DNA of 4,639 bases from the IMG/VR virus record IMGVR_UViG_2734482591_000017; one strand, given 5' to 3'. Positions 128-944 of this stretch are shown here, in pieces (positions within the stretch are counted from its first letter, which is position 1; each line of letters opens with the position of its first letter). Origin of the DNA: a virus (lineage: Duplodnaviria; Heunggongvirae; Uroviricota; Caudoviricetes). The translations under genes and the position numbers were made by a program. A model generated the notes under the pieces. The model ran no database searches, was not told the DNA's origin, and saw only the letters and a program-made list of their open reading frames with translations.

Positions 128-450
128 TTTTTTGCCCGTCCATATTCAACGGCTTCTTTGAGGAGTTCATTTTCCATCGTTTTCTTGCCGAGCAGGCGCT
201 GGAGTTCTTTAATCTGCTTCATGGCGGCAGCAAGTTCAGAGGCAGGAACAACCTGTTCTCCGGCGGCGACAGCAGTAAGACTTCCTTCCTGGTATTGCTT
301 ACGCCAGAGAAATAACTGGCTGGCTGCTACACCATGTTGCCGGGCAACGAGGGAGACCGTCATCCCCGGTTCAAAGCTCTGCTGAACAATTGCGATCTTT
401 TCCTGTGTGGTACGCCGTCTGCGTTTCTCCGGCCCTAAGACATCAATCAT
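85..450 (-). CDS. insC: IS2 transposase InsC (OrfA), 121 aa
   Basis: The ORF track 85..495 contains [30 protein letters not shown]...LLPGDGE. The recognised InsC start is the internal Met (MIDVLGPEK) at 450; the stop is TAA at 87-85. Confidence 0.9.
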
Positions 451-541
451 CTGTACTCCAATGACTAGTCTAAAAACTAGTATTAAGACTATCACTTATT
501 TAAGTGATACTGGTTGTCTGGAGATTCAGGGGGCCAGTCTA

Positions 542-730
542 ANACAGGACGGGTTCGGAGATCACGTACTGGCAACAGCGATCCTGGATCGGCTGCTACA
601 TCACTCAACCACGCTGAATATCAAAGGAGAGAGTTACCGGTTAAAAGAGAAACGTAAAGCTGGAGTGCTGACCAAAAACACAACGCCAATCAGTGATGAT
701 GAAATGGTGGAAAGCGGACAGCATCAGTAA
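542..730 (+). pseudogene. istB-like (IS21 family ATP-binding helper) C-terminal fragment, 5'-truncated
   Basis: Translation ...[60 protein letters not shown] (stop 728-730). The FGD...LDRLLHH...[15 protein letters not shown] motif is typical of IstB C-termini (from memory). No start codon or N-terminal ATPase region is present. Confidence 0.55.
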
Positions 731-788
731 CGAAAGTATTTAGCGGGCATGAAAATGGCAAATAACGGTCAAACATCGTGGCGTTGAC
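542..788 (+). mobile_element. IS21-family element right-end remnant (istB 3' end plus terminal sequence ending ...GGCGTTGAC)
   Basis: It encodes an IstB-like C-terminus (see pseudogene 542-730) followed by about 58 bp ending in TGACA-like terminal bases. It sits exactly between two identical 156-bp IS2-end copies, with a single N at 543. Confidence 0.5.
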
Positions 789-944
789 ACAATTGCGATC
801 TTTTCCTGTGTGGTACGCCGTCTGCGTTTCTCCGGCCCTAAGACATCAATCATCTGTACTCCAATGACTAGTCTAAAAACTAGTATTAAGACTATCACTT
901 ATTTAAGTGATACTGGTTGTCTGGAGATTCAGGGGGCCAGTCTA
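789..944 (-). repeat. Second, isolated copy of the IS2 left-end 156 bp (IRL plus first ~21 codons of insC); exact direct repeat of 386-541
   Basis: Base-by-base comparison: 386-541 equals 789-944 (offset 403), while flanking bases differ (385 a vs 788 c; 542 a vs 945 c). Confidence 0.85.

Follow-up and report, generated by a model that had tools for sequence, protein, structure and literature searches.

The 156-bp duplication of an IS2 end in a lambdoid prophage contig is very probably a product of draft assembly

The window, i.e., the whole stretch of 4,639 nt analyzed here, contains an exact 156-nt direct repeat (386-541 and 789-944), and we conclude with high confidence, based on sequence comparisons, that this duplication was produced during draft assembly or scaffolding and is not a feature of the genome. 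The stretches at 553-789 and 790-944 align as genuine parts of the locus, and the underlying biology is ordinary and already present in finished genomes: IS2 in a helicase gene, IS21 in that IS2, and a deletion at a microhomology. The rival readings discussed below jointly retain only a small share of the probability.

A repeat finder applied to the window returned the two copies at 100% identity with a start-to-start spacing of 403 nt and a spacer of 247 nt (542-788), and inspection of the bases placed an ambiguous base, n, at 543, which is 2 nt past the first IS2 terminus (541) and the sole single N in the window. The preliminary description had reported the same identity, spacer, and ambiguous base, all with correct coordinates. 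As references for the dissection of the window, we used the IS2 of E. coli B7A (labeled IS3-like element IS2 family in RefSeq) and a complete 2,130-bp IS21-like element of E. coli O121 (L004) (Table 1). The sequence is nearly identical to IS2, including its left terminal repeat ...GGGGGCCAGTCTA, and since both copies represent the IS2 left end, the repeat did not arise by chance. In the second copy, only 155 nt (790-944) are derived from IS2. The alignment of 785-944 with nt 159..1 of the B7A IS2 (98.75% identity, one gap) overextends beyond this part, and the IS21-like terminus ...GTTGACA ends with the A at 789, so that the agreement of this base with IS2 is coincidental.

Alignments and Pfam also bore out what had been said of the identity of the pieces, i.e., an IS2 left end, the C-terminus of an IS21-family IstB, and an IS terminus. 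The IstB C-terminus (codons 554-727, stop codon 728-730) matches the last 36 positions of the Pfam profile IstB_IS21 (203-238 of 238; E=1e-13), and a 100%-identical istB copy is labeled IS21-like element IS21 family IstB in RefSeq. The IS21-like right terminus ...GGCGTTGACA ends at 789, and the identical end, which is a repeat of the TGT...ACA type, is found in L004, L001, and L002. The 247-bp spacer, previously described as a fragment of istB and an adjoining IS end, does contain both of these parts, but its first eleven bases (542-552) are not from IS21. From 945 onward, the window follows a lambdoid prophage in the order helicase 3' end, 85-aa ORF, rusA, a run of 250 N's, antiterminator Q, tRNA-Met(CAT), and tRNA-Arg(TCT). 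Bounded by IS2 at its left edge and by IS600 at its right, the 4.6-kb piece resembles a contig of a short-read draft, ending in repeats.

Table 1. Coordinates of features in the window and at the corresponding locus of the finished chromosome L016
Feature	Coordinates	Strand	Basis or remark
Window: IS2 nt 541..1, left inverted repeat ending at 541	1-541	-	99.8% identity to E. coli B7A IS2
Window: orfA, HTH_Tnp_1 (E=1.8e-19)	85-450	-	Pfam
Window: eleven orphan bases ANACAGGACGG (A-n-ACAGGACGG)	542-552	.	Match neither IS2 nor IS21
Window: IS21-like right-hand 237 nt (nt 1894-2130)	553-789	+	100% identity to L004
Window: orphan IS2 left end, nt 155..1	790-944	-	Alignment to B7A IS2 and finished genomes
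Window: CGGAC, right-hand copy of the IS2 5-bp target duplication	945-949	.	Flanks in L016
Window: last 124 nt of DnaB-type replicative helicase gene of lambdoid prophage, disrupted by IS2	945-1068	+	
Window: 85-aa prophage ORF	1065-1322	+	
Window: IS600 end, 107 nt	4533-4639	-	Other repeat boundary of the contig
L016: helicase ...ATAACGGAC, then IS2 right end (IS2 nt 1331..203)	6532-7660		
L016: IS2/IS21 fusion at the microhomology CATGTTG	7651-7660		
L016: IS21 nt ~59..2130	up to 9725		
L016: IS2 nt 155..1, then CGGACATTTT	up to 9880		

Finished genomes were retrieved using exact matches to the 85-aa ORF beside the structure, which gave ten places. Seven of these are finished chromosomes (L012-14, L016-18, and L021) with 99.9-100% identity to the window at 553-1426 and 1677-4639, and in the three others (L015, L019, and L020) the helicase gene is intact, encoding in L015 and L020 a protein of 463 aa whose end is equivalent to window position 1068. 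In all seven chromosomes, the sequence upstream of 553 is the rest of IS21 followed by IS2 nt 203-1331, as detailed for L016 in Table 1. At the prophage junction, these genomes have just one IS2 left end; their istB is whole, and the 156-bp duplication is absent. Thus, the apparent istB remnant is, at the true locus, the tail of a near full-length IS21 (nt ~59-2130) and not a 247-bp fragment. The preliminary description had taken a single IS2 end in the absence of an istB fragment as the sign of a misassembly; all seven finished genomes have the single IS2 end at the prophage junction, but istB is whole.

In L016, the outer IS2 is bounded by CGGAC on both sides and lies in the prophage helicase gene, and the window keeps only the right copy of CGGAC. 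The empty site, ...ATAACGGACATTTT, is found in L003, and the uninterrupted target, ...TTTATAACGGACATTTT..., in E. coli FDAARGOS_944. Based on these alignments, the history of the locus comprises three steps. First, IS2 entered the 3' part of the helicase gene, duplicating CGGAC. Second, the IS21-like element entered this IS2 between nt 155 and 156, at codon ~22 of orfA. Third, a deletion across the 7-bp CATGTTG took the first ~58 nt of IS21 together with IS2 nt 156-202 (~105 bp) and, presumably, one copy of the 4-bp IS21 target duplication. The IS21-like copy in L004 has CACC on both sides, and the corresponding left end is deleted at the true locus. The left deletion junction (IS2 nt 203 to IS21 nt ~59) is identical in the seven finished chromosomes. 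Because IS21 has lost its left terminal repeat and IS2 has lost 47 nt of orfA, both elements are immobilized. We did not find this junction in IMG/VR, in which the viral-region calls probably stop short of it. The nesting at the locus is therefore IS21 inside IS2, which is the reverse of an IS2-in-IS21 insertion.

The seven finished chromosomes are very probably those of Shigella sonnei. This assignment is based on three observations: plasmid CP104430, the accession number of which is near that of L012 (CP104423), is from S. sonnei; the IS21 copies are 100% identical to those on S. sonnei plasmids; and the draft contig L026, the proteins of which are named as S. sonnei by NCBI, is 99.9% identical to L017 at the locus.

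We considered the three junctions of the window separately. Junction A consists of the IS2 left end, the orphan bases, and IS21 from nt 1894 and reads TCTAA?ACAGGACGGGTTCGGAG / GGCCAGTCTAA.ACAGGACGG; junction B joins the IS21 right end to IS2 nt 155; and junction C joins the IS2 left end to the prophage sequence CGGACATTTT. Junctions B and C were found in two (L005 and L006) and six independent IMG/VR contigs, respectively. Junction A was absent from 5,426 complete E. coli genomes, PLSDB (including the S. sonnei virulence plasmids), IMG/VR, GTDB representatives, and JGI metagenomes, and a junction between the IS2 end and istB was found in none of the seven finished chromosomes of the same locus. 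After the IS2 end at 541, the window reads ANACAGGACGG where IS21 has TGGGGAGAAAT, and a 5-bp target duplication is lacking. Given the eleven orphan bases, including the n, between the two elements and the lack of a target duplication, junction A does not qualify as a transposition junction.

Scaffolders such as SSPACE and ABySS write a single n for an unresolved overlap. In sister draft contigs covering the same prophage region (L005 and L007-L010), all eight single N's are located at assembly joins, e.g., a Q-like gene, N, and IS21 nt 1938 in L005 or a Q-like gene, N, and IS2 nt 821 in L009. Seven of these joins are non-collinear with the finished L017; at the eighth, the two sides are collinear and an overlap of 4 nt was left unmerged. 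At four of the eight, a direct repeat ends flush at the N, as it does in the window. On L017, the left and right flanks of the n in the window map to 9762-9880 and 9489-9599, respectively, corresponding to a backward jump of ~390 nt, and these flanks are non-collinear in all seven finished chromosomes. The n at 543 is, therefore, probably the mark of a scaffold join.

A protein search with the ORF reading across junction A returned no identical chimera and a single analogue, P0001, which is a singleton, compared with 2,758 blocks of the collection for the neighboring 85-aa ORF. P0001 is labeled by NCBI as a 123-aa chimeric "IS21 ORF2" protein and comes from the S. sonnei draft L026 (CWTR01000205.1), a 5.4-kb contig with the same architecture as the window. 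At 1154-1180 of L026, an IS2 left end is joined without an N to IS21 nt 1780 and not to nt 1894, the join reading ..CCAGTCTA, then CTGCCGATGAAC... The different join points in the window and L026 (1894 versus 1780) imply that the join tracks where a contig happened to start. That two drafts have joins in the same orientation at different points, neither of which is present in finished genomes, fits with a generic IS2 contig being linked through the shared 155 nt.

These data support the following sequence of events for the origin of the duplication. A short-read assembly would have broken in the multicopy elements, leaving two pieces. One contig, Y (544-4639), would begin in IS600, cross the prophage and the 155-nt IS2 remnant, and extend ~240 nt into IS21; the other piece, X (1-542), would be the left part of a generic IS2. 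Window positions 340-385 are IS2 nt 202..156 and are absent from the locus in all seven finished genomes; since IS2 nt 156-202 were lost at the true locus, window positions 1-542 come from another, or a collapsed, IS2 copy. As the last 155 nt of X also lie inside Y, read pairs from all IS2 copies would connect X with Y across a gap that appears negative, and the scaffolder would have butt-joined the two and written a single n, so that 155 nt would be represented twice. We infer that read pairs through these shared 155 nt caused the join.

The bases at 544-552, i.e., ACAGGACGG, are probably contig-edge noise. They agree with IS21 at two of nine positions, which is noisier than other noisy contig edges. 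In S. sonnei drafts, contigs reaching into IS21 from other loci begin at IS21 nt 1855-1890 with first bases that are rich in errors, which would offer a plausible origin for the odd bases. The orphan bases had no exact or one-mismatch match in ~300 kb of compared loci and were also unmatched in GTDB representatives, IMG/VR, JGI metagenomes, complete E. coli genomes, and PLSDB, with S. sonnei chromosomes being sampled around this locus only. Several candidate sources were rejected. The best full-length matches in E. coli (in yejO, a GyrI-like gene, and one plasmid) are gapped chance resemblances; a remnant of the Nextera adapter (..GAGACAG) does not fit; and the likeness to the prophage flank ATAACGGAC, at six of eight positions, was judged too weak, and this flank is on the wrong side of IS2.

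An assembly artifact at a repeat, with the n as its sign, was among the three explanations offered in the preliminary description, and it is the one that stands. We agree with its premise that transposition alone cannot yield a 156-bp duplication. Two nested IS2 insertions followed by a deletion, another of its explanations, are not supported, and neither is an insertion of IS2 into IS21: the IS2 end does not abut IS21, there is no 5-bp duplication, and junction A is in none of the finished genomes examined. Recombination between IS2 copies likewise lacks support, given the orphan bases, the lack of a target duplication, and the absence of junction A from these finished genomes.

It is improbable that the duplication is a real rearrangement private to one strain, in which a second IS2 is located 11 bp from IS21 nt 1894 and the left end is truly duplicated in direct orientation. 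One route to such an arrangement would be an insertion of IS2 into istB and, after it, a small deletion or filler event; another would be illegitimate recombination involving a different IS2 locus. In favor of this reading, both elements are numerous and active in these genomes, other records have IS21 within IS2 at three different positions, and the clean junction between the IS2 end and IS21 in L026 can be read as a genuine private insertion. However, junction A itself contains orphan bases and an n and lacks the 5-bp target duplication, and it is missing from finished genomes with a 100%-identical locus as well as from all collections searched. Moreover, two private IS2 insertions in the same orientation would be very unlikely to fall by chance ≤115 bp apart in a 4.8-Mb genome, while an artifact arising through the shared 155 nt predicts exactly such paired joins as those in the window and L026. 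A simple insertion of IS2 into istB was rejected, as the bases after IS2 are not from IS21 and there is no target duplication. We also rejected the integration of an IS2 circle via the 155-nt remnant, which would give the remnant and IS2 in tandem without the IS21 tail between them.

We consider it equally doubtful that the contig is a chimera in which junction A is real but stems from a truncated IS21 copy elsewhere, with the crossover in the identical 237-nt IS21 tail and the n representing an ambiguous base call. S. sonnei has many IS21 copies, and truncated IS21 fragments beginning exactly at nt 1894 are found in E. coli plasmid-like contigs (L027-L031). Nevertheless, the known nt-1894 fragment has another upstream sequence (..GGCTGCCGTG), and ACAGGACGG followed by IS21 was not found in E. 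coli genomes, PLSDB, IMG/VR, GTDB representatives, or metagenomes. In addition, the single N's in the sister assemblies are join marks and not base ambiguities. Even a chimeric contig is itself an artifact, and in that case, too, the duplication would not really exist at this locus.

IS911, another member of the IS3 family, shows targeted insertion beside sequences resembling its inverted repeats (IRs). If an orphan IS2 left end attracted a new IS2 in the same manner, the window and L026 would represent two independent real events; this is the least probable of the readings considered. In both assemblies, an IS2 in the same orientation is indeed positioned 250-350 nt from the orphan left end. 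Known targeted insertions, however, lie directly beside the IR-like sequence rather than at a distance of hundreds of bases. Moreover, the features of an insertion are missing from junction A, and both cases are singletons in drafts with none in finished genomes. By whatever route, it is very improbable that the window and L026 document two independent real IS2 insertions in the same orientation within the 350-nt IS21 tail beside the orphan left end. If they did, an orphan IS2 terminal repeat would recruit incoming IS2 copies, creating 155-bp direct repeats that could recombine later.

Compared with known systems, the window resembles a repeat-induced misjoin during scaffolding or gap closing (PMC5320598) in having the edge of a multicopy IS, a single N, non-collinear flanks, and a segment present twice. 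The same pattern is observed at seven of the eight single N's in the sister contigs, and the window differs in the nine unexplained bases after its N. Page et al. (2016; PMC5320598) assembled hundreds of S. sonnei genomes with a Velvet/SSPACE/GapFiller pipeline, with a mean of 405 contigs, and described the SSPACE and GapFiller steps as greedy, with false joins being possible. The true locus, with IS2 interrupted by an IS21-like element, resembles nested ISs in Shigella and E. coli, of which E. coli FDAARGOS_1303 and plasmid pE200139_112 provide examples with IS21 at other IS2 positions; it differs in the microhomology deletion, by which the IS21 left end was lost along with 47 nt of IS2, and it has no long duplication. 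Similarly, the outer IS2 conforms to a simple IS2 insertion with a 5-bp duplication, CGGAC being present on both sides, while the end at 541 in the window has no target flank. In IS-rich genomes such as those of Shigella, a single N beside an IS end in a draft contig should be read as marking a join, and exact duplications around such an N should not be taken as rearrangements.

Several minor observations were made in the course of these analyses. In the unrelated records with IS21-like elements within IS2, the elements are located at IS2 nt 155, ~445, and ~870 (L001 6239 and L002 6238 versus window 789/790), and this recurrence may simply reflect the high copy number of IS2, or IS21 may mildly favor IS2 as a target. 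The IS21 fragments of the E. coli plasmid-like contigs L027-L031, which lie at ~3045 in a ProQ/FinO neighborhood, are 97% identical and also start at nt 1894; their product, P0003, has 73 aa and is found on 127 contigs. This fragment was rejected as the source of the window sequence because, although its break point is the same, the sequence upstream differs. Three S. sonnei draft contigs (L032 1-50, L033 1-45, and L034 1-45) start 240-275 nt inside the IS21 right end and have many substitution errors in their first 30-50 bases, giving rise to "partial IstB" proteins with garbled N-termini (P0024, P0031, and P0043). P0019, a partial S. sonnei protein with 33 member sequences, is encoded by an ORF that reads the antisense frame of the IS2 left end twice running. 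The IS2 left end is duplicated here too, at another locus of S. sonnei drafts, and the cause could be either real nesting of IS2 in IS2 or a recurrent artifact.

In the prophage part of the window, the N run (1427-1676) conceals the greater part of rusA along with the start of Q. It is exactly 250 nt long, while the finished genomes and L005 have 254 nt (L017 10363-10616), and the run is, therefore, not a length-preserving mask but an estimated scaffold gap or a mask of nominal length. Two tRNA genes are located downstream of Q: the one at 2646-2721 (anticodon CAT) is called Met by ARAGORN, and its RefSeq homologue in L003 is tRNA-Ile; the other is tRNA-Arg(TCT) at 2822-2898. The prophage of E. 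coli FDAARGOS_944 is otherwise nearly identical but lacks a segment (2779-3483) that includes this Arg tRNA. Finally, the IS600 end at the edge of the window interrupts a DUF1737 gene, and the finished genomes have the full IS600 (L012 13516-14672).
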